Positions 1,967-60,384 of a stretch of DNA of 64,000 bases are shown one piece after another. The notes below the pieces were generated by a model. The model worked only from the letters and a program-made list of their open reading frames with translations, ran no database searches and was not told where the DNA came from. Both the position numbers and the translations under genes were made by a program. Source of the DNA: Podospora anserina (Eukaryota); assembly GCA_017654855.1 (NCBI GenBank), contig CM030338.1, forward strand, positions 2,728,001 to 2,792,000, read 5' to 3'. Every line of letters starts with the position of its first letter. Position 1 is the first letter of the stretch.

Positions 1967-2109
1967 GTGAAGGAACACTAGCTGTAGAAGATAGGCAATA
2001 TAATTGTAATATAAAATGGAAAAAAAAAAAGGAAACATCGCCTGTAAGATCGTATCATGCTCCCCTCCCATCTCGCGACTCCCAGTCTACATGAAGGCAG
2101 AAGCAAGAC

Positions 2110-2333
2110 ACAGTATATATACCATTCCAACCACACACCTTCGAACAGCTCCAATATCCTTGCCAGGGCGCCCTTGTGGTCAGGTCAAATGGTAAGGATA
2201 TTGGAGCTGTCAAACCCCCCCCGCCGGGGGCTTGCAACCGATATCCCCCGAGTTCGATTCGAAGTAAAACCACCGAGGTGTTCGTAACCGGCCACCTCCT
2301 GGGTTTGACCGGTGAGTTTTTTCGACTTTTTTT
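2110..2333 (+). ncRNA. Dispersed structured Pol III-type/tRNA-derived element, copy 1
   Basis: TATATA 2114; 21-bp hairpin 2145-2165/2190-2210; B-box-like GAGTTCGATTC 2250-2260; T6 and T7 at 2317-2333. Homologous to the copies at 40.7 kb and 58.2 kb. Confidence 0.6.
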
Positions 2334-2643
2334 CACGACCACACTCTATACAACAGAATGCTGGCAAGCAGGATGAAGAACAACTTGGACATGTGACTGC
2401 TAGCTAGCTAAGGTCTTCCCAGTGCCCAAAGTTCACACGTACCTCAATCATTTTAGACCCCTCTGCCCTCTGGAATAATTGCTACCTTTAGATCCTGCAA
2501 TATTCAGGTTGTGTTTGCAACAAAGAGGGCGAGTAATCTCACACTCGACCAAAAACTCCTCGCTCACCGAAACTGCCTAGACCAGATCCGATCGATCTTC
2601 CACAAATATCATTACAACATCATGCCTCCATGCTCACCAATGC

Positions 2644-4980
2644 TCACTTCGCAAACTATTCCAATGTTAGCCCAAATCCTCATTCAGAATGGAAAAACCA
2701 TGTACTCACAGCCTTGGCCTCCTCCTCGGTCACATCCGAAACATCCAGCTCCTCCTTCGTGATGAGCCCCAGTCCACCACCCACAATATGCTTATACCAC
2801 ATCTCCCTCCGGTCACCATCCAGCTCACCACTCAGCAAGCTCTTCTTCAGCGCTCTCAGAAGCTTGTTGTACAGCATCGGCATCTCGAACCCAAGCAACT
2901 CCTCCCTCATAACTCCCAAATTCTCAGCAGCCCGCGAGTAAAACACATCAGCAAAGCTGTCCTTGATGAGCTTCCGAACAATCTCGCCCATTTGCTTGAC
3001 AGCCTTCTCGATCGTCTCGTCGTCCTCAGCTGCGGCGAGCATCTGCTTGAACTCGGGAATAGCGTTTTCTGAAGAGATGGCAGCGCGCTTGGGTTGACCG
3101 CCAAGGAGGGAGTCAATGTCGAGGCCGGAGAGGGGCTTGACGGTGTCTTTCTTGCCGAAGCGACCTTTGGCCTTTTCGGGAACCTTCTTGAGTTCTGCGG
3201 CATCGATCAGGTTGCCGATTTCGTGCTTGGCTTTCTCGAGGAGCTTCTTTGGAGGCTTGGAGTACCTCAACAGAATCTCGGCTGGTTGCCCGATGGGCGA
3301 GTCTGGGTCAACAGCCCGGGCTCGGATGGCCTGGTTCATCCGGTGGATGATTGGGTTGTACACCTCGTCTACGGGTGCATAGTCTACTGGTTTTCTGTTG
3401 CGACATGTTAGTAAACTGCCGGGATACATGGAGCGAAAAGCATACCCATCCTCATCAACATCATAGTTCGACAAATCCATTGCGTCAACAAAGTCGCTCA
3501 CAGCGTCCTTCAAATCATCGTTTGGCAACAGCCGATGCTCCTTGAGCACACTCCCAGACACGGTAAGCACCTTGTCCAAGGGCGGGAATTGGTAACTTCG
3601 GATATCCTCGGCAAAGGGCAGAGGTACATCGTAAAGGCACTCAAACTCATCCTCAAGACCAGTGTTGGGCTTGAGAAGAAGAATCTGAACTGCAGCCTCA
3701 TCCTTTTGCACATATCTGGCAACAGCATACGAGTCAGCCTCGTAGAGAGCATGAATGAATGCCGAAAGTCCCAATTCGGCCTCCTCGTTCATTTTCTGGG
3801 GCACAATCAGACCCGTTTCGCCCATGTTGATAAAGGGATTGTAACTGTCAAAGGGGACGAACCCGATGATGGTGAATGACTTTTTGGTCGAGTACTTTGT
3901 GATGGACAGGTCGGACTCGCCAAACGGAACCACCGTGCGGCCATACTGGTAGCCCTTTGCAAGCTCTTCAAAATCAACGTCTCTCTTGCCTCCTGGGGCG
4001 TCGGGATCGTTGACCTTGTAGGTGCGCATTTGCTTGACACCGGAGAACTCGGCTCCGCCCATCTCAGAATCCCCATCTTCGTCTTTGTAGGTCTGTGATT
4101 GACTGAATCCGTTATTGTTGCTGACCACGACGGTGCTTGCTGATGGCGCAGAAGCGCGTTTGGTCTTGTAGTAACGCTCCACGTGGAAGCTGATGGCGCT
4201 TGGATATTTGTCTGGGTCTCCGAGGGTCAAAGGCCCATCATAGGCCTTGAATGGTCGTACTGGCTTGATCCGAGGTATTGACAGCTCATCCACGGCCTGT
4301 TGCATGGTGCCGAACACGCCGTCATTGCACTTTTCCACCAGTTGCTGAAGTGCCTTTTCGTTGTTTTTCTTGTTGGTAGACTTGTCTTCTTCCTTAAAGC
4401 CGTAGTCAGCGTCGTCAAAATCGATACCACTAAAAGAATGTCAGTCTGGCGCTGTCTCTTGTCGTCAGGAAATAGAAACATACATCACAATCAGTTCAAC
4501 TTTGAACTCGTTGAATACCGCAGCGATGTGGTCCAGCTCTTCATCATCAATGTTCGACTCGCCATTGGTGACAAGGATTACCCTCCGCTTGATCTTGTGC
4601 TTTGGATTGTACTTCTCAAGCATCTTCAGTGCCACCACAGCAGCAGAAACCGGATCGGCACCATAGCTCCTGGACGGCTGGACCTTGGAGCGCAATTCTC
4701 TGAGCTCCGTCATGCTCATGGGGCCGATGGGCTGTAACACAGAGATGTTATCGTAGCCCTCGAGCTTATCTTTATCCGCGAGTTCGTTCTCTGTCTCATC
4801 GGTGTTGAAGCCAACGAAACCTATGGTCCACGTCTTCCTGCTTGCCGCGACGGTATCTGAAATCTTGTCCCAAACATAGCGCATACCAAAATCGAGATCA
4901 GATTCGACGCGGCCGTTATGGCAATCAGCCATTGACTCGCCTAGGTCGACGACGTAGACTGTGGATTCCTTGTCGGCCAT
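2644..4980 (-). CDS. ku80: ATP-dependent DNA helicase II subunit 2 (Ku80), about 3 introns
   Basis: N-terminal vWA (MADKESTVYVVDLG), Ku core (KGYQYGR, LPFAEDIR.Y.FPPL) and C-terminal domain. Introns at about 4482-4430, 3444-3389 and 2710-2656; terminal exon FAK*. Confidence 0.95.
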
Positions 4981-18199: not shown

Positions 18200-21100
18200 T
18201 AGCATCTTTTATCTGCATATATGGCTCGGCGTTTTCAACAAGTGGGCGGGGCAAGCATCATCATCATCATATCACATCTTCACTCATATCACGAACACAA
18301 ACCAACCATTCGACAAACAAACCACAATACATATACATGCAATTCCCTGTCGTTTGGTTGGCGAGTTGTTCTGGGAAGTGGGGCAGGGGGAGTAGGGTTT
18401 GTTTCACTTCTTTTCTCAGGGCGCCGGAGGCTTTGGTAATACCTTTTTTTATTCATTAAAGCCTGGATGTTGTGCACCAGGAAACATTTATAATTCATGG
18501 TTCTCAGGTGGTAAAAAAAAGAGAAGGGATGACACATGGAATGAACTTTGATATCTTTGGGCTTTTTTTGGGGGGGATTGGGGAAGGTAAACATGGAATC
18601 GGGGAAGCAAAACATCAGGCATGGCAATTCTCTCGAATTTCCTTTCTTCCGCGAACACAATCAAAACCCACACAACACACTATCTACTACAACACACTTT
18701 ACACAGCATATTCTTTTCTCTGCTCACATTGTTGGGGTTAGGTTTTTTTGTTTTTTCTCCCTTCTTCCTTTCACGATGGGGGGGCGTTTCCGGTTATTTT
18801 CGGCGCTGGACGACAGGGGCTGGGAACATTTGCAACAACGCACTTTCTTCATCACACAACTCTCAACTCCATTATTGCAACACGCTTGCTTCACTTTATC
18901 ACACCGCTGCTGCGGGACGGGACGGCGGGGAGGGGGGGGCTAAGGACAACACATCAACAACACCACCAAACACAATCCACAATTGGGCATTGTTTTTCTT
19001 TGTGCCATCTCGATTTCTTTCTTTCTTTTTCGTTCTGCTGCTGCGTGGTTGGTTTGTTGACAAGGGGGCATCTTTTTTTTAATAGCGGTCACCGACTTTC
19101 TGGATTGACACTTGACAGGGGGGAAAGTGCACCCAAGCTTCGGATCGTCAAGCCGAGAAAGGAATGGTGTTTCTCCACAAGCCTCAAAAGGGGGTGGGGG
19201 GGGGGGAGTGGTGGTTTTGACGGCGGCACGACCCGCCAATAACACTAGCCCTCTTTTTTTTCTGGGGCGGGCGGGTATGGAGTTCCGGTGAGCTGGCACT
19301 GGGGCGGGCCAGCGAGATTCTACGCAAATGCACGATGGCACCTTGGGGGGAAAGATGATCTAAGGCATTGAGACCTGAGGGGAGCTAAAGACGGGCACCA
19401 GGCACAGGCACAGAAAAGAAAGAAAGAAAGCGAGAATTGTTGGACCGAGAGAAACCGAGCTTGTTGATGGGCGTGATTGGACCGACTGATTTGAAGGCTT
19501 GATCAAAGGGGGCAATTTGACTGATTGATGTGATTATTGTGGTTTTGGTGTTTTGTGGGCTCTTTGTTTTGTTCTGTGGCACTGCGTGTTGGTGATGGTG
19601 AAAGTGGTTACGTGCATATACATGCATATATATATATATATGTTTCTTTTATGAGAAGCTGGGGGTTTTGACATTGAGGTTGGTTTAGGATGTTTTTAAT
19701 TATGAGGCATGATGGAATGAGTGAAAGCGGAGAGAGAGAGACTGGGGGATTACTGATACTTGGACCTTGAGCCCTTGGTTTTGTTTGCTACAACCAGGAC
19801 CTTACTTACACTCTGTTTGGGGATATATACCACAGAAGCTTAGCTATACCTCGCGTGCTCGGTCACAAAGACAACAACAACAACTAGAACAAGAAAAAAG
19901 AACAAAATACCAAAAGACAAATAAAGCATATTACATGTCGCACGATTTTTCTCTTATCTGTTGTTGTGGATGATAGCAGAGTTCCAGCGAACAATTCTCC
20001 CGTAGGACCGGTACCGGAAATCAAAAGCCGGTCCCGGACTGCCGGACGGAGGGGGGGCGGGTACCGGGGGAGCCGGGGCGGGTCAGCCGGGCCCAGGCAA
20101 AACTCCAGCTCAACAAACATTCTTGGCTTTTCGCTTGTCTGGTGGGTAGGGTTTCGGGATATTTGTGGACTTTTGTGGAGGAGGAAGATCCACTGAGTTG
20201 TGGAGGTGGGTGGATGTATTGGGCGAGATCCTCGATCGGGATCGACGTTTTCAATGAGCTGGGAATGATCAACGGCTTTTTCTTGACGGTTCAAGATTTT
20301 GTATGCACAGGTAACTCACCTACGCAACATTGTGTGAGATTGACCTTGGGGAGAGAGAAGTGGTTTAACCCACCTCATGAAGTGGCAGATCGAGAGGAAC
20401 GGCAGATACAGGATGTTCAAAGATCTCGATTTCGAGATCCGTAGTGGAGAGGACATTGTGGAGGAGCTCGCAACAACACTGTGTGGAAACATTGTGGGGG
20501 GATGAAGGTGTGTGTTATCAGATTATGCTGGCATCTGCTGATGTGATGTGTTTACACATGGCATGACGCGGGGACAAAGCGGGCTTCGGTTTCAATACCT
20601 CTTCAAAATATTTGTGTGTGAAATTCGCCCAGGGGGAAAAACCCTAACTTCCCCAACCTGGAGACGAGAAAAAAGGGGGGTGGGCGACGGGTTTTGATAC
20701 CATCGCCATGCTCTCTGGCAGTCCTAAATAGGAATGAGAGAGGATGGTACAAGGTATAAGAACCTTGGAAGAGAGTCTGGGGTGGGAGAAAGTGACATAG
20801 TAGGTGGGATGGGGATGGCATGGGAAAAATTAAGATGGTGGTGCTCGAAACTACCCATCCACAAGTTCAGTTCATATGGGGTGGTGGTTGTAAATGGGAG
20901 AGTTGAAAAAAGAATATCAAGTGCGGTTTATGTGGATCGAACACATGACCTTCAGATTTGTTGATTGAAGTGGACTTCAGTCTGACGCTCTCCCAACTGA
21001 GCTAAACCCGCTTTTTATGATGGTGTTGGGGGAGGGAATAGTGTATGAGGGTATTGTCAGCTTCATCAAGTTGCACAAACAAAGCGCTCCTTTGCTTGCT

Positions 21101-32777: not shown

Positions 32778-34980
32778 GGCGGTTGGGGGTGGAAGAAGGG
32801 TGTTCGGTGAAGCGGCTATGGGATGACTCTCTCCCGGCCAGGGTTCTACGACATGCGATGGATGACGCAAGGTACCGGGAGCTGGAGTCATGGTAGTGGG
32901 TTCGCAAGCTTAGGCATCGGCAACATGTGGGATGCATCTAGGATGGAATGGATGGGAAGACGGGAGACCACCACTTGCGGCTGCCGGATCTTGCATGGAC
33001 CGGGCTTCCATAGGAGCAGGCATCCATCTTGGTCGCTTAACAAGCGCGGAGGGTGGTGGTAGCAAGGAGGGTTGCGGTTGCGGTGGTGTGGTGGTGGATA
33101 TGGTAATGGTGGTGGCTTGAAGCAACGGTTTTTTCCCCTTCTCCCTCGTTACAGCTGATGGCAGCAGTATCAACAGCCGCGGCATGTGTGTGTCGTGCAA
33201 CCCCAACAAGCGGCGGCTGTTCACCGGGGCGAGTGCTGCGTATGTCGGTATGTAGGATATAATGCGGATAGCTAATAGTATGAAGTGAGTTTGCGGCGCC
33301 GGCACATGGCAAGCCGGGATCAGTTACAATGACGACTTTCCAGCCCAAGGCCCGGGGGCCCAGCTGAATAGCTGGTATGACCGGGAAGGGAAACGTAAGG
33401 CTTTCTCCGGTGTCGGCAGGGGGCACGGTGGGCGTTTGAGTTCTGGTTGTTGTCATCATTGCTCACCGTTTTTCCATCCCGCTATTGTGTCTCGCGATAA
33501 TTGCTCCATACGACTAGGGAACGGACTGGGGACTGGGACGGTGAGTGAGTGTCAGTTTTTTTTTGTTGCTATTGTTCAGCCCCAGGAGCTGCGCCATATT
33601 TTTAGCGGACCTTCTCGGCGCCTCATTAGTGTACCGGGACCCGGACGCCGTAGGCGGGGTGTCCACTATACGGAAGCGGCTGCTTTTTGAAGCTGAGGCC
33701 GCCAAAGGGGGAGGAGGAGGAGAATTGGAACGGACTTTGCCATGCGAAACCAAAAAGTTAGTTTCGGCTTCGGATGGCTTTAAGCACGGCTGCGGCAACC
33801 GGCTTTCTTCTTTTGATCTTGCTGAAGCCCTTCAATTTCGGTGCAGAGAAACATGCAATAGAAGCGAGGCGCAGTTTGGATGGTGAGGTGCAGCTGTGAG
33901 TCTGACCAATGGGAGGGGATGTGGTGACTGAAATGGGCAAAGAGAGCCTGTGAGAGCCGCGCTGGAAACCAGATTGAATCCAAATCTGCCCTTTTGCCCT
34001 CTGCACAGCGTCTAAGATCACGTTTTCGGCGGGATAGATGGGGGAAAGCTGGGATAAAGTCCTTTCCCTTTTCGAACGTGGTATTGAGGCTTCTCGGGGC
34101 TAAGATGGGGGGGGGGAGCACCACCACACCGCAACCGCACCCACACTCTACCTTGGGGGACAAGCTACTTTTTTGATGTTACATATCGGTTTGGGGGGGA
34201 GATGACAGGCTGTGAGACGCGTGATCAGACGCCCTCCCGTTATGTCTGATGGCCTCTTTCTTCCTCTTTGGTTTTTTCTTGGGTTGAGCAGGGGATAGCG
34301 AGAAAGACGACTCATACCCACATCAGCACAGCTTTCGGGATGGGGCTATCCTTTTCTTCTTCTCCTTCGTCACCACCACCACCACCCCTCCCTGGCTGGG
34401 GTTAGGTAGGTAGGCAGGCAGGCACTGCTGCTGAGACGGCCCAATCTTTGAGGTAACAAAGTCTTGTTGTCTTGGGCAAAGGTGACATTGGAAGTTTACA
34501 GCTCTCCAGGTTGGGAAGTCCTAGTCTGGGTTGGAGTACTGACATGTTTTGTCTTGGAAGCACCAATTACATACAACCTTGCCTTGACCTTGAAGCTAAG
34601 GTTTGAGCTCTTTTTTTTCTTGTTTTTTTTTGTTTCCTGCCCCAGAGGTTGCCGCTTTCTATATATCTCCCCGAGGCTCGCCTCCTCTTCTTGATGGAGA
34701 TGTGTTTGAACAGACAACACAGCCAATCCCCTTTTGCAGATATTATTACCTGCCTATTCCAAGCCGCCTCGCTTTAGCGTTACCATCACGGGCAAACAAA
34801 GTCATGACGGACTCGCCGGTCAGGTGGTGTTGAAGTTTGGTCATCTCCTGTTTCGGACTACTGGACTAGTTGGGCAACGTACACTCAGCGAAGTCGTTGT
34901 TGTGTCATCGTTGGAAAATTTCCCTTTGACTTGTCGTTGCCTGGTTCTAGTTTGGGCTTGGGGAACAAGGGAAAAAAGAT

Positions 34981-40188: not shown

Positions 40189-40681
40189 GTTTGGGGTGGT
40201 TTTTTGAGTTTCTTTCTTGGGGGATAAATGGGGGGTATGCGTGTTTGAGGGTGTGTTAATGCGGTAAGGTTGGGTTACTTTGTTAGGTTAGTTGTTTGGT
40301 ATGGGTGAGTGAGTGAGTGAGCTGGGCAATGAGAACAAGACAGTCGTCCGATTCTTTCTCTCATAAGTGAGGTGAATGTTGCTAATGACTCTTGGCTATC
40401 AAAGCAGAATCCAGATGCTCGTATCGCCATTGCTCGTTCTGGAGAATTGAGGTATAAGGTCAGGTCGCTTTGTTATGGAACTTTGTCTGGAATAAAGGAT
40501 TCAGTGATAAACAACAAGAACCGTTCGACTTTTCTTGTTATCAAAAGCAGTGCTGTTATAAATGGCGGAGCGACCTCCCAGGCAGATGAACCAACTCCTC
40601 GCTTGTCTGATCATCTTGGACGTGAAAGTGGGTTTGACCTTGTTGTCTTTATATTGGGACATCGATCGATGAGGAGTGAAG

Positions 40682-41012
40682 AAAAAGCAAAAGCTCACCA
40701 GCCCTGGGTGGGCGGACTACGAAAACCCAGTTGAGAAAGGTTTTACTTTGGGGGAGGGGGTCGAACTCGGGGGCTATCGGTTACAAGCCCCCAGCTCGGG
40801 GAGGTATTTAAACAGCAGCTCCGACATCCTTACCATTTGTCCTGACCACAAGTGTGACGCCCTGGTAAGGATACTGGAGCTGCTGTTGGAAGGTGGGTGG
40901 GGAGAGTGGTGTATATACTCTGGTAGGGGTTGCTCCTCCCTTCTGTTGTTCTGGCTTCTGTTGTTCTGGGTGGAATGACGGTGTCACATGATGGCAAAGT
41001 GTTGATCAACTT
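40682..41012 (-). ncRNA. Dispersed structured Pol III-type/tRNA-derived element, copy 2
   Basis: On the minus strand: TATATA 40917-40912; 25-bp hairpin 40887-40863/40835-40811; GAGTTCGA 40768-40761; T4GCT5 40692-40682; upstream homology with copy 3. Confidence 0.6.
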
Positions 41013-42681
41013 CCAGGTTGCGGCATGGAAAATCATTGTTATTATGGAAGGCTTTGAGTGAGTTGAGCTTGCTGCTTGACCCGCAACCGTCGTGCTTGTG
41101 GTGATTCAGTGCCGTCACTGCCACCACATACCTAAGATACCCAAGGTAGCCTTCCTACATCAGGTACATGTCGAATATACCAGCAGCAACAGTCAAGATC
41201 CCATGAAGTTCCCCGCTCAATATCACAACAAATCTCGATGAAAAGTACGGAACATCACTCAAGTGCATAAACCATTTCGCTAAGACGCTTCGTATACCTG
41301 CATGTAGCTGCCCCCAGAGCGAACAAACCATTACCCTAACTTCCAAAGTGAGGGATGTATCTCTCCCAATGTGGCGTTTCGAAAACAGACTCGGGCAGGT
41401 GGCTGATGCTGATGAAGGACTCGAGAAGAAAGGTGGTGTCAAGGCACAGCCTCCACCAAACACGCCTTCCAACATGATAGGCTCGAAAACATCAAATTCC
41501 AAACTCACCGCCGAGCCTGCTCTAAAGTTATCCTTTGTAGTTTGTTCATCGAGATTCAACTTGAAGTACTCAGGCAAAGCAAGAGCTAATTACATCAACA
41601 CTTCTACTCTCTCGCGACATAGTAGCTTGTCCAACACGATCCCATAAAAGTCTCCCTCCAAGACCCCTTTCCCGCTGAGTAATGTAATCACCTTAAACCA
41701 ACATCGCCATCAAAGCGTTTCTCATCGTCAGCCCAAAAAAGGAAAGTTGCGAGGTTACATTGAAGATGATCTACAAACTCGACACAGTTGACGATGCACA
41801 CCCCGCATAATACCCGGCTTCCTTTCCGGTTCCGAATGAACAAGCTTTTGGGAGGAAGTGCCTAGCGATAAATGGGAAGCTCAAACGTTGGGGACCACTG
41901 CAAAAAGTGCTTCTCGGGGAATTATTTTGTGATTTGCGGTTGGTGTTTTGGAGGTCCAAACGGGACGGGAAATGCAAAAGAGTGAAGGTCAGGGGTCTTG
42001 AGGGTTTTTTAGTTTATTGTAAGCTTACGGGGTGTGATACTAGGGTGATACTGTTCATTCTGATCTCGAAGCAGCGTGCGTTATGGTATCTTCATGTTCA
42101 ATGGCCCGATGTTACATGCTGACTCTAACCTTACCCACAGACACAGCTCCTCTGGCAGTCTATACCACTGTGACAACCTCCCAGAACACATCAAAGCTTT
42201 GTGACTGCAAATGCGGCTAAACACACCGCCTTGCCAACAACCACTCCCGAACCCTGGGATCATCATGCAGTGTATGGCGATCAGGGAGTTCACGATGACA
42301 AAAGAGCATTCTCCATTCGACCGAAAGCACAGCAGCACCGAGATGTCGTTGCGTTGAGGTGTGAGCGGACGGCAAGAAGGTAGGACTTTCTCGTGCGGAT
42401 GGCACATCCCGTGCCGCTGTCACAGTTAGTATCAAACATTAGACGGAAGGGCAGGTAGGTGTCTGTGTGGGCTGTCAGGAGGTTAAACACCCAAGGGTCC
42501 CAGAGCAGAGTCAAAGCTGCCTCCTATCCGTCCTTTCCTGCTCTTCTTCTCCTTAACTCGAGGCACTGCCTTTACCTTCCGTACATATCTTTCCCAATGA
42601 TACCGATACTCGCCTCATTAGTTTCACCAGACCAAACACACCCTACTTGAAGTTGACCATCACCTCAGCAGACACAACAAC

Positions 42682-43476
42682 ATGAAGCTCCCATGCCTAC
42701 CTCTTCACCTCCACCACCACCACCACCACCACCTCCTCCTCCTCCTCCTCCCCCTCACCATCCCATCAGCCTCCCCCCTCCCAGTCACACCACAACCCGG
42801 CCCCTGCCCCCTCCTCCACATCCTCTCCGCCCGTGAGACCACCGCCCCCCCAGGCTTCGGCTCCTCCATAACCCTTACTCAACTCCTCCTCTCAACCTTC
42901 AACCACTCCTCCCCCCCACCCACCCACCCAACCATAACCGCCGAAGCAATAGACTACCCGGCCCTAGGCGCCAACACATCCGAATACGCCGCCTCAGTAA
43001 CAACCGGAACAGCAGCAGTCATCAAACGGCTTTCTACATTCAACGCCCTGTGTCCAGAGACAATACTCATCCTCCATGGGTTCAGCCAGGGAGGGCAGAT
43101 CATAGATGATGCGCTTTGCGGGGTGCCTCATGATTTTACTGGACGAGGAAAACCTGATGAAGATGGGGGACGGGTTGGGAGGCCTTTGGTCAGGAGGGAG
43201 GTGCAGAGGAATATTGCGGCGGTGGTGTTGATGGGGAGTCCGAGGTTTACTGGTGGGAAAAGGAGGGGGGAGAAGGGGACGGCGAAGGTGGGAGGATTTG
43301 CTGCCCGACCGGAGGGGTTCAGCTGTCCGGTGTTTGATGATAGGATGGTGAGTTTTTGTGATGAGGGGGATCCGTTTTGTTCGGATGGGGAGGATGAGGA
43401 GGTTCATGGGGGGTATGGGGAAGTTTATGGGGGGGAGGCGTTGGGGTTTGTGGTTGAGAGGGTGCTGGTTGGGTGA
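42682..43476 (+). CDS. Secreted cutinase/acetylxylan esterase (CE5)
   Basis: Signal-like N-terminus, CP..H..ARET, YPA, nucleophile GFSQG, CDEGDPFC and a downstream His. Confidence 0.9.
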   Translation: MKLPCLPLHLHHHHHHHLLLLLLPLTIPSASPLPVTPQPGPCPLLHILSARETTAPPGFGSSITLTQLLLSTFNHSSPPPTHPTITAEAIDYPALGANTSEYAASVTTGTAAVIKRLSTFNALCPETILILHGFSQGGQIIDDALCGVPHDFTGRGKPDEDGGRVGRPLVRREVQRNIAAVVLMGSPRFTGGKRRGEKGTAKVGGFAARPEGFSCPVFDDRMVSFCDEGDPFCSDGEDEEVHGGYGEVYGGEALGFVVERVLVG

Positions 43477-49087: not shown

Positions 49088-51776
49088 ATGGCCGCACTGG
49101 TACAAGGATATCCACAGCAATCTGGGACAGTCACAATGCTTCAGACCAGACCGGCCTCAGCCTCGGGCATGCTGCCAGTTCAGTCGAATGCGCAATATGC
49201 TCAGGGTGGAGCTCATAGAAATAGTATCCACGGCTTGCCCACAGGAGTGGCTTCTCCTGTGGTGTACCGTGGCGGCTCAGGGTCTGTCCAACCTTATGCC
49301 TACACAGGCACACCCAGCCTTAATCCGACGACACAATGGCAACAGGTCAGGTCACACCGGACATCATCCTCGCCAGCAGTGCCGACTATCCAGACGCTGG
49401 ACTATCTACAGCCTGGTGTGGCCCGCTCCCGGTACGCGGCCAGCAACTCCATGACAAACTTGCCTAGTACGGCATCCATCAGTTTGACGGGTGCCGGGTC
49501 TCGGGATGATTCAGCCCTGCCGTCATCAGGAACACGCAGAGCCGGTGCGCAGGCATCACAGATGAACGGAACATCGCTGTCGCCACCGATTGCACAGGCG
49601 GCGCCGCGGGTGTCACCGGAAAGATACAGGAGAACTGCGTTGCGGTCTTCTGACTCGGCGGGCTCGGGCCTAGGGAAACAGCCCCAGGAAACGGCAACCG
49701 CTGGGCGCCCAGGCCACACTCGGAGTGCATCGGATCAAAAGCCTGTGATGCTGCGGACTCCCCAGTTGCACCAGATGAACAGGCCAAACAGCTATATCGG
49801 CTCGGTATCTGGGTCGGCGATTGACGACATGGGGTTTGTCCGCGGTCAGGGACAAGAGGAACCCAGAAGAACTCGCAGACGCAGCTTGCCCGCATTGGAT
49901 TCTGCCGGTTTTTCCACGCCCTTGACCCCGCCCGAGCTTAAGCAGCCGGAACTACCAAGCCGTCCAGATCGACCAGCATCGGCCAAGGTGGCCGAAAAGA
50001 AGAACAACAACCCCAACAAAGCTGCCAAAGCTGGAAGCAACAAGGCCGGCGACAGAAACAACAGCAGCGCTACTACTGATGCCCGTCTTGGCAGCTCGGA
50101 CAGCCGGTCCTCTGGCCGCAGCGCTGGAAGCAACAATTCCAGAGCTTCCTCTTCTGTAAGTGATTTCTGACCTGCATATCTCGTGGCTGCATTGTCCAAT
50201 CACATGTTATGGCGGCAATGTTGGGGGTTGGATCAACCAGCGCTAATCATCTCCTACCACTTTAGTCGGCCAACCGCAGCGCGAAGGCTTCCAACCCCAC
50301 CGGAAACCCCGCCCCGTCTTCCTCCTCGCCTTCTGAGCAGACGGGCAACAGCCAAGATTATCCCCGGCTGGTCAACATTCCCCCACGAAGTTCATCGTCC
50401 GATGCTGCAACTCCGAAGCGTGCCGTCAATTCGTCTCCCCTTTCCAAGGCAATGGGCACGGAGACTGAGAATGGCGTTTCGGCCGATGCCGCCGACAGCG
50501 CGATTCAGGAGGCCGTGAAGCCGACCACGCCTCGCGTCGAGAGTCCGGCCGCCAGGCAGCTGGCTGCCATCAACGAGAATGGAGGGAAGCCAAAAAACAA
50601 GACATCGAGACTTAGGAGAGCCTTCTCCTTTGGTAGCGCGGCAGAGTTCCGGAAAGCGGTACATGCTAACAGCGAAGCCGCCGAGAATGGGCCAGGCAAG
50701 CTCCAGAAGGAGCAGAGCCAGGAGGATGCGTACGAGACGGAACAAGCCCGCATCGCCCAGCGACAAGAAGAGGCTGGCATCGGCAGCAACATCTACGGCG
50801 GCAGACTCTTCTCGGGATCGACCGATAACCTATCAATCTCATCAACGGCATCCTCGGCTTCGATTATGATTCGGAAGATGGGTCGTGGAATGAAGAAGGG
50901 CGGTCGTTCCCTTGTCGGCCTTTTCCGGCCCAAGTCCATCATTGGTGTGCCGGCCGCCGATGCCAGGATGCCCGAGGCCATGGAAGCTACCGTCTCCATG
51001 GTCAATGTCGAGGCCGAGCGCGAGCGTGTCAATGTGAACGCCGACCCTCGAACGCAAGCTGGTGGCGGTACCGGCTTCCCCCGTCTCGAGCGAAATTCCA
51101 TCGACGCCGCCAATGTACCCACACTCGAAGCGGACCCACGATCTAGCACAGGCACAGACAGCTCGGCAGCACGAAAGAGCATTGTTGGCGGTGAGAAGGA
51201 ACGTGCCGAGGTCTTGGCTGCTGTCCGAAAGGGCATCTTGAAGAGTACGTTTGTTCTTTTCCGGTGAAGAGGCATGTTGCTAACATTGTTGCTTTAGAAG
51301 ACCGCAATGGCTCCGCCAGCCCATCTCCACGCGGTACAGAACCGCCTCATGCTCCTAACGTCACCGATTCCCCTACCTCCAGCGCTCCCAGCACCCCCAA
51401 TGATGAGCAGCAAGGACACAGACGGACTGCGCCTGTCGCCATTGGCAGTGAGGATTACTTTGTTTCGGCCCTCCGTCTCCGCCAGGACACCAAGAGCGCG
51501 CCCGGAACCCCTCAGGGCAGCCTGAAGCGCAACGCCACCTTCAGCCCCCGCATCATCACCTTTGAGACATGGCCGAGCGGGGAGTACGATCGCCGTGGTG
51601 ACATCGCGACGTGCAACCGCCTGACGCCAATGCTTGCTCAGCAGATCAAGGAAGAGCTGAACACATTCAAGATGGTGGGTCTCCTACTGATTATTCGAGC
51701 GATGCATGAGATGCTAACAACCAACCAGGAGATGGAGGTTCACGAAAACTCCAAGATTTACACGCATTTCTTCTAA
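49088..51776 (+). CDS. Bni4-like/PHACTR-type PP1-binding protein, 4 coding exons
   Basis: C-terminal TWPSGEYDRRG...LTPMLAQQIKEELNTFKM|EMEVHENSKIYTHFF; introns at about 50156-50265, 51246-51297 and 51675-51729. Confidence 0.8.
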
Positions 51777-53970: not shown

Positions 53971-55650
53971 ATGGCGACGGCTCCGACAATAGATGCCCCA
54001 GCGGCGGCGACGGTGAAGAAGTTGCACGGGAGGGAGTTCTACGAGAGTATCGGGTCGCCAAAGTATATCCTCGCGCCAATGGTTGATCAGTCCGAATTTG
54101 TACGCCCTCCCTTCTCTGTTCATGACTGATTTTTGGCTGACGTGATGGTTTTTTGCTTCCAGGCCTGGCGTATGCTCTCCCGCTCATTCATGCCCCCCGA
54201 GCTGCAGTCAAAACTCCTCGCCTACACCCCCATGTTCCACGCCCGATTGTTCTCCCAAGACGCTCCGAAACCGCCCTACAACAAATACCGCGACTCGCAC
54301 TTCCAGTGCGTCCTCCCCAAAGACCCTGCCACCCTCTGGCTCGACGGCAACCCCCTTGTCGGCGACAGGCCGCTGTTTGTACAATTCTGCGCCAACGACC
54401 CCCAGCACTTGCTGGCTGCTGCCTTAAAAGTCGCCCCCTACTGCGACGCGGTAGACCTCAACCTCGGCTGCCCGCAAGGTATCGCCAAAAAGGGGCACTA
54501 CGGCAGTTTCTTGCAGGAGGATCAGGAGTTGATTTATAGGTTGATCAACACCCTTCACGAGAATCTTCCCATCCCAGTAACGGCCAAGATTAGGATTTTG
54601 GAAACAAAGGAGAAGACGCTGGAGTACGCAAAGAATGTGTTGAGTGCCGGGGCGAGTATATTGACTGTTCACGGGAGGAGGAGGGAGCAGAAGAGCCATT
54701 TGACGGGGGTGGCGGATTGGGAGTATATTCGGTATTTGAGGGATAACCTACCGGCGGAGACGGTCATTTTTGCGAACGGGAATGTTCTGGAGCACGGGGA
54801 TATCGAGGAGTGTATTGCTGCTACGGGGGCGGATGGGGTTATGTCTGCTGAGGGGAACTTGTCTAACCCGGCGATTTTTGCGCCTGAGCCTCAGCCGGGG
54901 GCGTTTGAGGATGAGTTCTGGAGGGGGAGGGATGGGAAGGGGGGATGGAGGGTTGATGCTGTTTTTAGACGGTATCTGGATATTTTACACAAGTATGTGA
55001 AGGGGGGTGAGCCACCGGCGAGGAGGCCATTGTTTGTACCTGGGAAGGGGATGGATACGGAGTGGATGACGGAGGAGATTGTGATCCCGCCGAAAAAGGG
55101 GTCGAAATCAGAGGCATTCGGTAACCCCAACTATGGTGCCCTTCAGGCGCACATGTTCCACCTCTTACGGCACTTTGTCTCAAAGCACCATGATGTAAGA
55201 GATGCATTGGCTAGGGCGAGGTTAGGAGAGTTGGAGCAGTTTGAGGGGATATACAAGATGGTTGAGAAGAAGGTTGCGGAGGGACTCATCGAGTACGAGG
55301 AGACGGATGGGAAGTCGATGGAGGATCCTGCGGAGGAAGAGAGGTTAAAGAAGCTGGTGGAGGAGATGGGTCCGGCGGAGACGAGCGCGACGGCGATTTT
55401 GAGGTGTAAGAGGCCTTGGTGGTGTGTGCAGCCTATCATTCGGCCGTTGCCCAAGGAGGCGATGGCTAGAGGTGCGATTCAGCCGGGGAAGAAGGATAAG
55501 AAGCGGGTAGCGGAGGAGGAGGCCAACGGCGGTGAGAAGAGGGTGAAGGGCGATGAGACAAATGGGGGGGATGCTAAGGTGGTAGAGGCCGTGAAAGAGG
55601 AGCTGGAGAAGCAGACGGAGTTCCAAACGAGCGAGCTTGTTAGCGGCTGA
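53971..55650 (+). CDS. dus1: tRNA-dihydrouridine(16/17) synthase, 2 exons
   Basis: ILAPMVDQSEF|AWR, DRPLFVQFCAND, VDLNLGCPQ, TAKIR, TVHGR, ANGN, GVMSAEG; intron 54100-54162. Confidence 0.95.
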
Positions 55651-55713: not shown

Positions 55714-57726
55714 CTACCTGATGGTGACCATCTCATAGTTCTCCAGCGGCTTTCTGGCTTCAAACGCAATTCCATCCATGAACTCATCCACATAAGCAGG
55801 GGCCAATTACCTTGTAACTTCCATCACCCTCCCCTGAATCCCTCGTAACGACAGGAGTTGAACCCCCAAAGAAAACAAAAATCTTGTCCCCTTTTTCCGA
55901 TGTCATGGGCGCAATCCCCGCCGATACACCATCACGTCCCGGTACGGTAGCAGTAACCAAACAAGCGCCCTTCCAGGCCTCGGCCATGGAGGTCAAAAAT
56001 ACATTGGCTGGACCATTGGCTAGACCATTGTCAGAAGTGCCCCTAGATGATGACCCAAGTGCGGTTAATAACTGAGAAAATTGTTGTCGGTGGTCGAGGT
56101 TTTCGCCGAGCCACTCGGGGTACAAGTACCTGCCCATCAAAGTGCGAATGCAATCGGCACGGCCGAGAGGAGGGGTTGCATTGTATCCAAAATGCGAGTG
56201 TGTCCGCTGTATCAAAGTACGAATGTCTTGGCGTGCTCTGGCAGGATCAATAGAAGTGAAAGAAGGCCCCTGGAATCCCAATCTCTCCATCATCCTGTGG
56301 TCTGCATCCAGCTGGGGCGCCAAGGCCTCGATATCGACGCTTGGGTAAACTTGCTTGATGGTGGCCATGTGTATTCCAGCGACTTGAATCGCAGTATCAT
56401 CATCGTTGAACAGTGGGTGTTCCGGCGTCAGCCCTGAGAAGCGTCTCCCCGCTTCGTGACGAGACCAAGTACGTGTCATGAAGGGAGGCAGGGTTAGATC
56501 GGGGACCCAGGATGGTAGATTTGTGTCACTTTGAGATTCTGACTGACTCTTGCTCAGCATCAACCCGTCCAGGAACGAGGATGAAAAGGTCAGGCCCATG
56601 ATGCTTGAGGAAGGCCTTGGCGAAGTCTTTGAATGCCGTGCAATGATGAAGTGTGGTGTCGATAGTAATTTGCGTCTGGATTTCCGGACTGACAAGCCTG
56701 AGTATTCCATACACTCTGTCCCTAGGCTCGGTGCAATCCCGTTGCCGAACAAGAGTGACTACCTCGAGATCGTAGCGACGAGAGTCATTCCGCTCCTGGC
56801 AGCGAACAAGAGTATCTGCCGTTTTTATTAGTCAACGGCTTAACCAGTTCCTTGAATGAAGAGCAGAAATCATACCAAAAGGCTTTAGGGCCCCATATCC
56901 AAGGCTTGCCCTTCTAGCCACACCTATGCTGCTTTGGCACTCTTCCGGACAGCGCAAGTACACGGTGGCTAGTTCATCCCAGCTTTTGATGGAACGACCG
57001 CAAACCAGCCGTGCACTCCTGGCCAAGAGAACCTCTTGTAGTGTCCATATGCGGGTAAACCACTGGCGTTGAAAGAGGGCTTCACAGTCTTTCAAGTGGC
57101 GGCTGTACATACCCAACACCACGAAACCCTGTGTTCTCATAGGCGGACACCGCGCTATCGCAAATGCGAACTCCCTCGTCTTCTCCAGGCTCTCTTCCAT
57201 CTTCGAGTCACCGTCACCGGCCCAGATGGTGACGAGTTCCGCCTCTCTATAGATGTCACCCTTCATTCCAATCTGGACACCTTTCCCGTCCTCGTCTTCC
57301 TGATTGATGCATATCTGATCGATCCAGATCCATTGAGGGTGCCGGATGGCATCCAAGTCTCTGAACACTTGAAGAGCCTTGTGAAGTTCTGGCCAAATGT
57401 CCAACTGGCGAGTCTTGTTTACTCGTATATTCTGTTTGGGCTCAGGTGGTCCCCAGCAGTATGGAAGGGCTTGGTAACTTGGGCACTTGCTGATCGGGAA
57501 TGTCTTTGGTTTGAGGGAGATCAGCTCACTGTTTTCCGCACTCTTGACCTTCTTACCCTCCCTGGCTCTCCACTTTCTTCCCTTATTACCCCCTCTTCCT
57601 CTTTTCGTTTTGGCTGCACCCTTCTCTCCTCCCGCTTTTCTTGTGTCTTTCTCCCTACGGCGTGGTAACAGTCTGAGAAGCCTGAACTCGGTGGGATGAA
57701 GGGGTTCGTAGAGAGAGGAGGACATG
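55714..57726 (-). pseudogene. HET-domain (HET-6-like) heterokaryon incompatibility gene with two frameshifts
   Basis: FRLLRL, YQALPYCWG, WIDQICINQED, WFTRIWTLQE, then an intron (about 56874-56817), CTEPRDRVYGIL, a frameshift before LPSWVPD, and a second frameshift in IGPC-T-YVDEFMDG near 55794. Confidence 0.85.
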
Positions 57727-58159
57727 GCCGTTGGGAAATGGTGATGTCCAGATGTCAAGAATTGGTGAAAAGACAATTCAAGAGGATTATAATGAATTTG
57801 GGCTGCGATGGATACTCAACTGCACTTATAATCGTCTCTCCCGACTTGAAAGTCAGACAAGGCTCTCATGCGCCAACCCAGCCTGCTTCCAACACGGCAG
57901 CTGTACTGCAGCGCCAAGGTCTTCATGTCGAACATAGCGCTTATAATCACCTCTCAGTGGTCATAGAGGCTACTTCCCGACAAAATTCGGAGGTGTGACG
58001 AGGCTCATGATTAGACGATGTTGTAGGATTGAACTGAGTGATTGGTGGTGTCTTGTTGTCGCAGGATGGCTGGCCAGATGTAAGCGAACAGTGTGTTATC
58101 AAGAGATCGTAAAAGGCAGAAAGAAGCGAGAGGGACTACTTGTGAGAGGGAAGGCACGG

Positions 58160-58448
58160 GTTGGTCAACAACCCACGGTCGTCATGTGATGCAGCCATTC
58201 CATCCAAAGCAAGAGAGGGAAGGGACAACCGCGTACCTTCCAACAGCTCCAATATCCTTACCAGGGCACCCTTGTGATCAGGTCCAAATGGTAAGGATGT
58301 TGGGGCTGTTAAAACTCGCCCCCCGCCGGGGGGCTTGCAACCGATAGCCCCCAGGTTCGATTCCAAAGCAAACCCCTCGAGAGGGGTTTCGTAACCGGCC
58401 ACCTCTCTCAGAACGCTGAGGGGGCTGACCGGTGAGCTTTTGCTTTTT
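58160..58448 (+). ncRNA. Dispersed structured Pol III-type/tRNA-derived element, copy 3
   Basis: 22-bp hairpin 58242-58263/58289-58310; consensus B-box GGTTCGATTCC 58354-58364; two 3' hairpins; T4GCT5 58438-58448. Confidence 0.6.
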
Positions 58449-58918
58449 CTACCTATATTATCTTAGGAAGATGATGGCTGTGCTTCATTTGTTCCCACTT
58501 AGTCAGTAGTACCTTTGCATATGTTGAATATATTTGGCGACTTTTCGGCCGGGGCTTTTTGTTGTTGACCATTATTGCTTGCTCTACTTCTCGTACCTAA
58601 CCAACCCATCGACCTTAGATTTCAGTTTATTAGTCTGGAATTAATAGGGTAGTTATCTGTGAGTGTTGATGATATTGAGGTTGCCATCGTTGCTGTCGTT
58701 CCATGCCAATTTCAGCATCTGTCAACTTGATGTTTTTTTTTAAAAAAAAAAAATCTTGCCTCTCCAGTCAAGTAACCATACTCTCTCTCTATTTCCCTCT
58801 CTTTCCTGAAGTCCCAGCTAGTGATCATACCTGATCTGTTCAGAGAAGCAGCAAAAAGGGGGGTGAACGCCAAGAGATCTCGATGGAGTCAAGTGGACAC
58901 CATTAAAAAGCACAAAAA

Positions 58919-59037
58919 ACATACAACACCAGGGATTCCCCAGTGGTCACCCACCTGAGTACTAGTCTGGCGATCAGCTGTTTGACTCGGGCAGAGCGGA
59001 CGGGATGCCGTATTTTCAGCTGTCTATGGTCGTATGT
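58919..59037 (-). rRNA. 5S: Dispersed 5S rRNA gene
   Basis: Minus strand ACATACGACCATAG...ATCCCGTCCGCTCT...GCCAGACTAGTA...GGTGACCA...GAATCCCTGGTGTTGTATGT followed by oligo-T; 119 nt. Confidence 0.97.
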
Positions 59038-59292: not shown

Positions 59293-60384
59293 TCAAGCAA
59301 GCAAAAACAACACCGTCACCACCATCACCGGAACCCATCCCATAAACACCCCCGCCCCCCGCCCTCCCCCATTGCTCCAAAGCATAACCGGCCTCCCCAC
59401 CTCCGGCGACCCGTCAACACTACAAACCGAATGACACACACCCTGCCCCTGCTCCTGTCTCTTCTCCGGCTCAGTCGTGTTATACAAAATCTCAAACCAC
59501 TGCAACTGCAAATACGCCGACTCCCCCACCGTCATATTCCCCGTCCACTCCCCCCCATCGCTCCACGCATTCAAAATAATATTGCTCACATCCTTCGGCG
59601 TCTGAAACTCAATACTCGCCACCTGTATATCATTCACATACCACGTCGTGCTCCTCGGCGTCCAATCCAACCTGTGAACAGCCCAATCTGACCACTCCAG
59701 ACCATTGGGCATGGTGGCGTTTTTGCTGGCACGGACTTCAACATCCCCCTCACTGTCCAAAGAAGGCTGGTTGGTGCAATGAATCACGTTCTTGGGGTCG
59801 CTGGTGCGGATTTCCAGGTCGGATTCTTGTACTTGGTAGTAGTCCTCCGAGTGGCGGTACGTAAACATGGCTGTGATGGCACCACGAGCGCCAATCGTGC
59901 GGGCTAACATCCGGATGGAGACGAATTTGAATTTTGCCGAGAGGGATTCTATCTCTGCTGTGGTTTGGAACTTTTGGAGACGCTCGGTGCGGAGTGAGAG
60001 CCATGATTTGGGGGAGGAGTCAGCGTCGTGGTTTGCTTCGAGGTAGACGTTGTTTGGTGAGTTGACCATCAGCAATGTAGAGTCCTCGCGGATGCCATGG
60101 CTGTTGTTCCAGTTGCTTATCATCCAGAAATCCGTCCATTCGGTCGAGTTGAAGAAAGGGCTCGTGATAGGTGCGTCGGATGTGTCCTTGACCTCTGTGA
60201 TGACTGGGGGTACGCTTGCGTGGTGGTGGTGGTTTCGAAAGTCGAAAAAGCGATGTTCCTTGAAGTATGCTGTTTCATTGCCTTTCATGAGATAGCAACC
60301 GCATCTGGAATCCTCGGTGAGAGGTGCTTGTTGCGCATTGACTCCCACAGCACCGCCGAGAAGGAGGAGGCTTAGAATCTCCAT
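59293..60384 (-). CDS. Glycoside hydrolase family 16, secreted, probably GPI-anchored
   Basis: Signal peptide, ESDLE catalytic ExDxE motif, HRLDWTP, WSDGGEW and a hydrophobic C-terminus. Confidence 0.9.
   Translation of the reverse strand: MEILSLLLLGGAVGVNAQQAPLTEDSRCGCYLMKGNETAYFKEHRFFDFRNHHHHASVPPVITEVKDTSDAPITSPFFNSTEWTDFWMISNWNNSHGIREDSTLLMVNSPNNVYLEANHDADSSPKSWLSLRTERLQKFQTTAEIESLSAKFKFVSIRMLARTIGARGAITAMFTYRHSEDYYQVQESDLEIRTSDPKNVIHCTNQPSLDSEGDVEVRASKNATMPNGLEWSDWAVHRLDWTPRSTTWYVNDIQVASIEFQTPKDVSNIILNAWSDGGEWTGNMTVGESAYLQLQWFEILYNTTEPEKRQEQGQGVCHSVCSVDGSPEVGRPVMLWSNGGGRGAGVFMGWVPVMVVTVLFLLA

Follow-up and report, generated by a model that had tools for sequence, protein, structure and literature searches.

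An unusually long hairpin in the 64-kb stretch of Podospora anserina DNA analysed here (the window) belongs to a low-copy, dispersed repeat. We read this repeat, with a probability of about 0.5, as a transcription unit of the Pol III type: its RNA would start with the hairpin, and the stem would be constrained in the RNA. The hairpin, flagged at 40811-40887, has two arms of 25 nt around a loop of 27 nt, and it lies on the minus strand in the second of three copies (copy 2). Throughout, the element strand is the strand that carries GTTCGA and the T-runs (minus for copy 2). The arms of all three stem-loops were paired base by base with a script, with the following results:

2145-2165 / 2190-2210, plus strand: copy 1 hairpin arms, 21 pairs (20 Watson-Crick and 1 G·U)
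40811-40835 / 40863-40887, minus strand: copy 2 hairpin arms, 25 pairs (22 Watson-Crick, 2 G·U and 1 A·C)
40863..40887, minus strand: copy 2 hairpin 5' arm, 25 nt, element-strand sense
40836..40862, minus strand: copy 2 hairpin loop, 27 nt, well conserved among the copies
40811..40835, minus strand: copy 2 hairpin 3' arm, 25 nt, first base U on the element strand
58242-58263 / 58289-58310, plus strand: copy 3 hairpin arms, 22 pairs (20 Watson-Crick and 2 U·G)

These counts agree exactly with those of an earlier note on this DNA, which also had the 3' arm opening with U, as it does on the element strand of copy 2. Across the copies, the stems are 21-25 bp long and the loops 24-27 nt. Every wobble in the three stems is a wobble solely on the strand with GTTCGA and the T-runs. 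The predicted folding energies were better on the element strand than on the opposite strand for copy 1 (-39.8 versus -34.5 kcal/mol, 5.3 better), copy 2 (-40.5 versus -39.6 kcal/mol, 0.9 better) and copy 3 (-40.4 versus -34.9 kcal/mol, 5.5 better), and the whole unit of copy 3 gave a fold z of -5.86. When the whole window was searched for local inverted repeats, the three hairpins were the top three of six. A 21-nt arm motif, with up to three mismatches allowed, matched only the six arms in the window, where 0 matches are expected by chance. The hairpin feature far exceeds chance. Elsewhere in the window, an inverted repeat whose 16-nt arms are 88% complementary and separated by 18 nt was noticed at 33172-33221, and a GC-rich palindrome within an ORF region at 49586-49619.

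The hairpin is part of a repeated element, as the earlier note had proposed; the unit is about 290-340 bp long. Three copies were aligned in the window; they are 71-84% identical according to pairwise blastn and alignments, the closest pair being copies 1 and 3 (84%, blastn). An nhmmer profile made from the three copies found no further copy in the window. The units and the parts of copy 2 are as follows:

2040..2336, plus strand: copy 1 unit, its 5' limit uncertain (2040-2093), with TATA at 2114-2121, hairpin at 2145-2210, 24-nt box at 2226-2249, B-box-like motif at 2250-2261 and T6/T7 runs at 2317-2333
40676..41012, minus strand: copy 2 unit, about 337 bp (blastn and alignments), carrying the flagged hairpin
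40912..40917, minus strand: copy 2 TATA box, its first T 30 nt before the first paired base of the hairpin
40769..40792, minus strand: copy 2 24-nt box, near-invariant, with a 7-bp stem GGGGGCU/AGCCCCC and a loop with CUUGYAA (alignment and consensus fold)
40760..40768, minus strand: copy 2 B-box-like motif, its core GTTCGA invariant in the three copies
40680..40699, minus strand: copy 2 unit 3' end, GGTGAG and then T4 and T5 runs that resemble a Pol III terminator
58158..58450, plus strand: copy 3 unit, with hairpin at 58242-58310, 24-nt box at 58329-58352, consensus B box at 58354-58364 and T4/T5 runs at 58438-58448

Copy 2 is homologous to copy 1 over 40676-40943 and, additionally, to copy 3 over 40957-41010. 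On the element strand, the 5' part of the unit consists of an upstream segment of 100-130 bp, the TATA, a conserved ACCTTCC leader, the stem-loop and a C-rich linker. The 3' part continues with the 24-nt box, the B-box-like GTTCGA, two small hairpins of variable sequence, GGTGAG and two T-runs. The 3' limit of the unit is sharp, and homology between the copies ends directly after the second T-run. About 130 nt on the 3' side of the hairpin are conserved among the copies, and so is the region upstream of it: homology reaches 100-130 bp 5' of the stem, TATA included. A copied upstream region of this kind needs either DNA-level copying or conservation of a promoter.

The three copies all lie within 56 kb (spaced 38.6 and 17.5 kb), versus about ten hairpin-bearing genomic pieces that align at a likeness of at least 80% (see below). 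This clustering hints at nearby DNA-level duplication rather than random insertion. The ORFs with protein matches around the copies are:

2680-4338, minus strand: ORF matching Ku, with a Ku C-terminal domain, Ku80-like
42682-43476, plus strand: ORF matching cutinase
54133-55650, plus strand: ORF matching dihydrouridine synthase
56832-57776, minus strand: ORF matching a HET domain
59293-60384, minus strand: ORF matching glycosyl hydrolase 16

Since the units are flanked by unrelated genes, they were not copied together with paralogous genes.

We then considered the Pol III-type signals of the unit. The distance from the start of TATAWA to the first paired base of the stem is 31 nt in copy 1 and 30 nt in copy 2. 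A TATA box at this distance predicts an RNA whose first base lies within a few nucleotides of the hairpin. In three other genomic copies, the loose contig ends have TATA-like runs with an equal offset, while the spacer has diverged. Copy 3 is without the TATA-bearing segment of about 30 bp that copies 1 and 2 have (site 58216-58241), and it may be a promoter-dead copy. TATA-less as it is, copy 3 has a clean stem and the only perfect B-box consensus. On the element strand, all three copies have T-runs of five or more nowhere but at the unit end, and the opposite strand has none; an internal T4 run is present in copy 2. The strict B-box consensus fits copy 3 only (one of three), and by chance one such match is expected in a window. 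A reading of the sequence gave no convincing A box in the unit; the loop of copy 2 (40836..40862, minus strand) contains a weak A-box-like stretch, judged against the A-box consensus.

Two RNA genes lie elsewhere in the window:

58918-59037, minus strand: 5S rRNA gene (90 bits), about 470 bp from copy 3, used as an in-window yardstick for Pol III signals
20922-21011, minus strand: intron-containing tRNA gene, an Rfam match missed by ARAGORN in its bacterial setting, probably Phe-GAA

The 5S gene has ATAAA about 28 nt before +1 and ends with T6-GTGC-T5, much like the geometry and the ending of the unit. Scanning the window with Rfam at gathering scores assigned no family to the unit; the only matches were the 5S gene and one tRNA, elsewhere in the window. 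The best weak Rfam match on the hairpin was to a plant miRNA precursor model, at 24 bits versus a gathering score of 75, and it reflects generic hairpin shape only.

The variation of the stem was analyzed with contigs of a genomic run (X1) aligned to 40300-41300 at 80% likeness. Twenty-three contigs were placed, about ten of them over the hairpin; these hairpin-bearing pieces are assembled contigs and not a strict copy number. The summed depth at the hairpin was 911-1098, versus 91-96 for a single contig. Variants were taken as unlinked counts per position among those listed, a partner base being merely one without a listed change. In the stem of copy 2, position i pairs with position 81698-i. 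Two compensated pairs were found: 40829 C>T (at least six contigs) with 40869 G>A (at least five contigs), and 40831 T>G (at least five contigs) with 40867 A>C (at least six contigs), the latter a pair of transversions. Both pairs were changed in about half of the hairpin pieces and travel together in the same contigs. The C>T change at 40874 that is expected from copies 1 and 3 was absent among the X1 variants listed.

The one-sided changes pointed to one strand. Seven one-sided arm transitions were among the X1 variants listed (40818, 40820, 40827, 40864, 40865, 40866 and 40870), and every one of them leaves a G·U on the element strand, equivalent to C·A on its complement; the A·C type is absent among them. 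Of the transitions listed beyond the arms, these two kinds stand at 4:3. In the middle of the stem, some paralogs have transversion mismatches, such as 40824 A>C in at least three contigs, and 40823 G>T was found in at least six contigs versus only two for 40875 T>A among the variants listed. One paralog was recognisable across runs from its depth (93.6 in X1, 217.6 in run X15 and 203.9 in run X16); it has both compensated pairs and three adjacent one-sided changes, all of them wobbles on the element strand. When the contigs were pooled with the window copies, nine distinct wobble sites were counted versus one A·C, corresponding to a one-sided binomial value of about 0.011 by hand calculation, uncorrected for descent shared among the copies. 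The statement of the earlier note that the wobbles work on the strand of the B box and T-run holds in the window copies as well as in the about ten genomic pieces.

Covariation among the three window copies was indistinguishable from shuffling, 150 of 500 shuffles reaching the observed value; 15 of the 22 pairs are invariant and one pair is changed on both sides. Therefore, the claim of compensatory evolution made in the earlier note rests on the genomic contigs with their two compensated pairs, and not on the window copies, from which it had been drawn. Most of the stem changes are either compensated or yield G·U in the transcribed sense, in keeping with a constraint at the RNA level. Support for the strand assignment and for such a constraint is moderate.

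Contigs of presumed-RNA runs were also inspected. In these, paralogous hairpins lie inside contigs of 2-5 kb, and the locus of copy 2 is represented by low-depth pieces that break at the repeat. Contigs of two such runs, from different studies, end at 41186 and 41194, in a region (about 41186-41217) through which the genomic run continues; these ends hint weakly that a transcript may stop there, downstream of a 915-codon ORF.

The earlier note had relied in part on a matching 3-nt insertion in both arms of copy 2. The insertion is present: relative to copies 1 and 3, the 5' arm of copy 2 has an extra CAG (CAGCAG versus CAG) and the 3' arm an extra CTG (CTGCTG versus CTG). It is not private to copy 2, however. 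The loose ends of two other genomic contigs read AACAGCAG, which contains CAGCAG, and GCTGCTG, one arm each, and several genomic contigs align over the 25-nt arm from its first base on. This makes the longer stem a subfamily trait, and possibly the commoner state in the family. Because copies 1 and 3 are the closest relatives and share the shorter stem, the difference counts as one historical event and not as repeated evidence. A single template switch during replication can copy a change from one arm to the other, including multibase compensatory changes (PMC8794818), and one such event accounts for the double 3-nt change more simply than two independent insertions. Since one template switch or arm conversion suffices, the double change alone shows no selection on the RNA and was over-read in that sense.

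Together, these data suggest the following scheme. Given the anatomy, repetition, pairing and strand bias observed, we infer Pol III transcription, its start site and selection at the RNA level from motifs and geometry. The TATA 30-31 nt 5' of the stem base would set the start within a few nucleotides of the hairpin. The hairpin would be followed by the 24-nt stem box, the B-box-like GTTCGA and the two variable small hairpins, and transcription would stop at the double T-run, the same point where homology between the copies ends, giving a predicted RNA of about 180-210 nt. The stem would be kept across the paralogs by a constraint acting on the RNA. The 3-nt difference in the two arms would mark a subfamily split; template switching or a conversion between the arms most likely produced it as a single step, after which it was retained. 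As for its role, the hairpin RNA could be a Dicer substrate, as in the Pol III milR genes of Neurospora, or a structural domain. Several observations were counted against the Pol III reading: the absence of covariation among the window copies, the strict B box in only one of three copies, the lack of a convincing A box, the TATA-less copy 3, the copied upstream region, the internal T4 in copy 2 and the mid-stem transversions.

Some of these observations are expected if the unit is a DNA repeat without function, which we consider a possible explanation, although not a probable one. The unit would then be a decaying MITE-like or segmentally copied repeat, with template switching or gene conversion between the arms holding these alike. 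A small number of events, or strand-biased mutation, would then account for the wobble bias, and the TATA, GTTCGA and T-runs would be incidental. Template switching can create and repair perfect stems in a single event (PMC8794818), and both the two-arm 3-nt change and the two nearby, co-travelling compensated pairs are changes of that type. The inclusion of the upstream region is what a DNA-copied element would give, the position of the three copies within 56 kb suggests local DNA duplication, and the window copies show no significant covariation. Short families of similar size, MITE and 'unclassified', are annotated in P. anserina (PMC8105982). However, a DNA-level process predicts no strand preference of G·U over A·C, whereas nine sites versus one were found, with a 4:3 split outside the arms. 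The TATA offset is fixed while the spacer diverges, and the homology ends exactly at the T-run. Moreover, the three copies have no terminal inverted repeats in common and no target-site duplication was seen in their flanks.

The short repeats described for P. anserina (MITE_discodeles, MITE_mantella, MITE_altiphrynoides and 'unclassified') are about 70-460 bp long, too short for RIP and without H3K9me3 marking (PMC8105982, including its supplement file 2). They are alike to our unit in size class and organism group, but the unit is without terminal inverted repeats. An inverted-repeat search of the three units gave only low-complexity A/T matches in copy 1, and membership among MITEs was rejected on that ground. 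No fixed-length target-site duplication was seen in the flanks, the 5' boundary not being fixed. A trio spaced 38.6 and 17.5 kb was absent among all 71 annotated MITE rows of PMC8105982 when coordinates alone were compared, and the 'unclassified' rows of that source were covered through part of chromosome 5; the unit may already be in a repeat library under another name. In the literature searched, we found no description of it. A metagenome scan was made with a 17-nt pattern, which was taken outside the hairpin because a bias from the arms was to be avoided; none of the 80 stretches listed, of 101 in all, was the unit, and the five weak nhmmer matches (E 4e-5 to 3e-4), centred on the pattern site, are at the level of chance.

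A narrower version of the Pol III reading is a family of milRNA or shRNA-like genes, in which Dicer would cut the 21-25-bp stem and either the 3' arm with its 5' U or the 5' arm would be loaded into Argonaute, silencing targets or the family itself. By the precedent of Neurospora the Dicer idea is reasonable and plausible; the full version is, in our view, rather doubtful. Stem and loop lengths (21-25 bp and 24-27 nt), the U at the start of the 3' arm and the predicted position of the hairpin at the extreme 5' end of a Pol III-type unit would all suit it, and so would the soft spot of mid-stem mismatches in many copies, as is often found in miRNA precursors. In Neurospora, the major milRNAs are Pol III products, one of them from a tRNA-containing precursor, according to PMC3547838. 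On the other side, a literature search gave no paper on Podospora small RNAs from such loci, no arm-complementary or target-like site was found in the 64-kb window beyond the six arms (up to three mismatches), and the conserved 130 nt 3' of the hairpin would be superfluous in a pure shRNA gene. About equally doubtful is the extended proposal of a lineage-specific family of Pol III 'shRNA genes', each complete in itself and the whole having multiplied as dispersed repeats: every copy would have its own TATA, a 5' Dicer-size hairpin of 21-25 bp, a tRNA-Ala-like relic and a terminator, the stem being under selection in the RNA.

The tRNA-like part of that proposal comes from a reading of the alignment. 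In each of the three copies, a canonical-looking anticodon-loop-like motif (CTTGCAA in copies 1 and 3, CTTGTAA in copy 2) precedes TTCGA by exactly 15 nt:

2234-2256: copy 1, anticodon-loop-like motif to TTCGA
40763-40785: copy 2, anticodon-loop-like motif to TTCGA
58337-58360: copy 3, anticodon-loop-like motif to TTCGA

We take this distance to be the spacing found in tRNAs, and UGC would read Ala. The arrangement may be a relic of a tRNA-Ala or a coincidence. ARAGORN, in its bacterial setting, found no tRNA-like gene in the window, and the Rfam tRNA model gave no match to copies 1 and 3 even at E up to 10; tRNA ancestry is therefore only a lead. An improbable alternative is that the unit is a tRNA-derived SINE with the hairpin in its body, that is, a retroposon with an internal A/B-box promoter copied via RNA by the reverse transcriptase of a LINE; such an origin would agree with the B-box-like GTTCGA of all three copies (a perfect consensus in copy 3), the anticodon-loop-like motif and the known tRNA-related SINEs of ascomycetes, but it was rejected on the tRNA head, the tail (T4-T7 runs at the unit end and not an A-rich or simple-repeat tail), the target-site duplications, which were not seen, and the homology over 100-130 bp upstream of the predicted start, TATA included, which a retroposed Pol III transcript would not carry. 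AfuSINE2 of Aspergillus fumigatus and other ascomycete tRNA-SINEs are likewise short, dispersed and B-box-like in the Pol III sense, but PMC5063351 gives them a recognisable tRNA head and target-site duplications of 4-14 bp. Here, the tRNA searches gave no head and no duplication was seen; T-runs close the unit, and the upstream region is copied with it.

The preferred reading, a Pol III-type unit with a 5' hairpin, has its nearest counterparts in N. crassa, a member of the same fungal order. Its major milRNAs are transcribed by Pol III from loci with TATA-like elements, putative A and B boxes and poly-T, and milR-1 to milR-4 have, as here, a stem-loop precursor in a short unit of this kind (PMC3547838). 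The stems of 21-25 bp at -39.8 to -40.5 kcal/mol are those of a Neurospora-type stem-loop precursor, and the promoter and terminator motifs of that type found here are the TATA at -30/-31 in two of three copies, the GTTCGA core and the terminal T-runs. milR-4 derives from a precursor that contains tRNA-Ala and is tied to tRNA-Ala genes, and our unit has an Ala-type (UGC) anticodon-loop-like motif at tRNA spacing. In contrast, most Neurospora milR loci lie in repeat-free regions according to the discussion of the same paper, while the unit here is a dispersed repeat with about ten hairpin pieces per genome. The likeness to milR-1 to milR-4 is one of architecture and, on the Podospora side, is drawn from motifs.

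Two further systems share single features with the unit. The rodent 4.5SH and 4.5SI genes are short Pol III genes derived from repeats or tRNAs; besides internal A and B boxes they require a TATA-like box at about -31/-24 (PMC10137851), a geometry equal to the 30-31 nt before the stem found here. However, these mammalian genes bear no sequence relation to the unit and lack a long 5' hairpin, and their RNAs have been demonstrated. RNA hairpins made or maintained by template switching show matched multibase changes of both arms in one event, as here (PMC8794818). Template switching is a mutational mechanism and does not define a family; it would account for the 3-nt change in both arms, but the G·U bias of one strand is left unexplained by it.

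Should there be no transcription, the unit is simply a small, unclassified repeat whose palindrome repairs itself, and its interest is local, to those who annotate Podospora repeats. If it is transcribed as predicted, the units would form a compact, natural, multicopy family of Pol III hairpin genes, and their paralogs would be a natural mutagenesis series in which RNA-level selection and DNA template switching could be weighed against each other in the keeping of a long stem. Were the shRNA-gene reading true, these would be mobile or duplicating milRNA genes, which would join the Pol III- and tRNA-linked milRNAs of Neurospora to the origin of small-RNA genes borne on repeats. Transcription as predicted would also carry the Neurospora finding, that microRNA-like RNAs of fungi stem largely from Pol III units, over to another model fungus and link it with repeated DNA.
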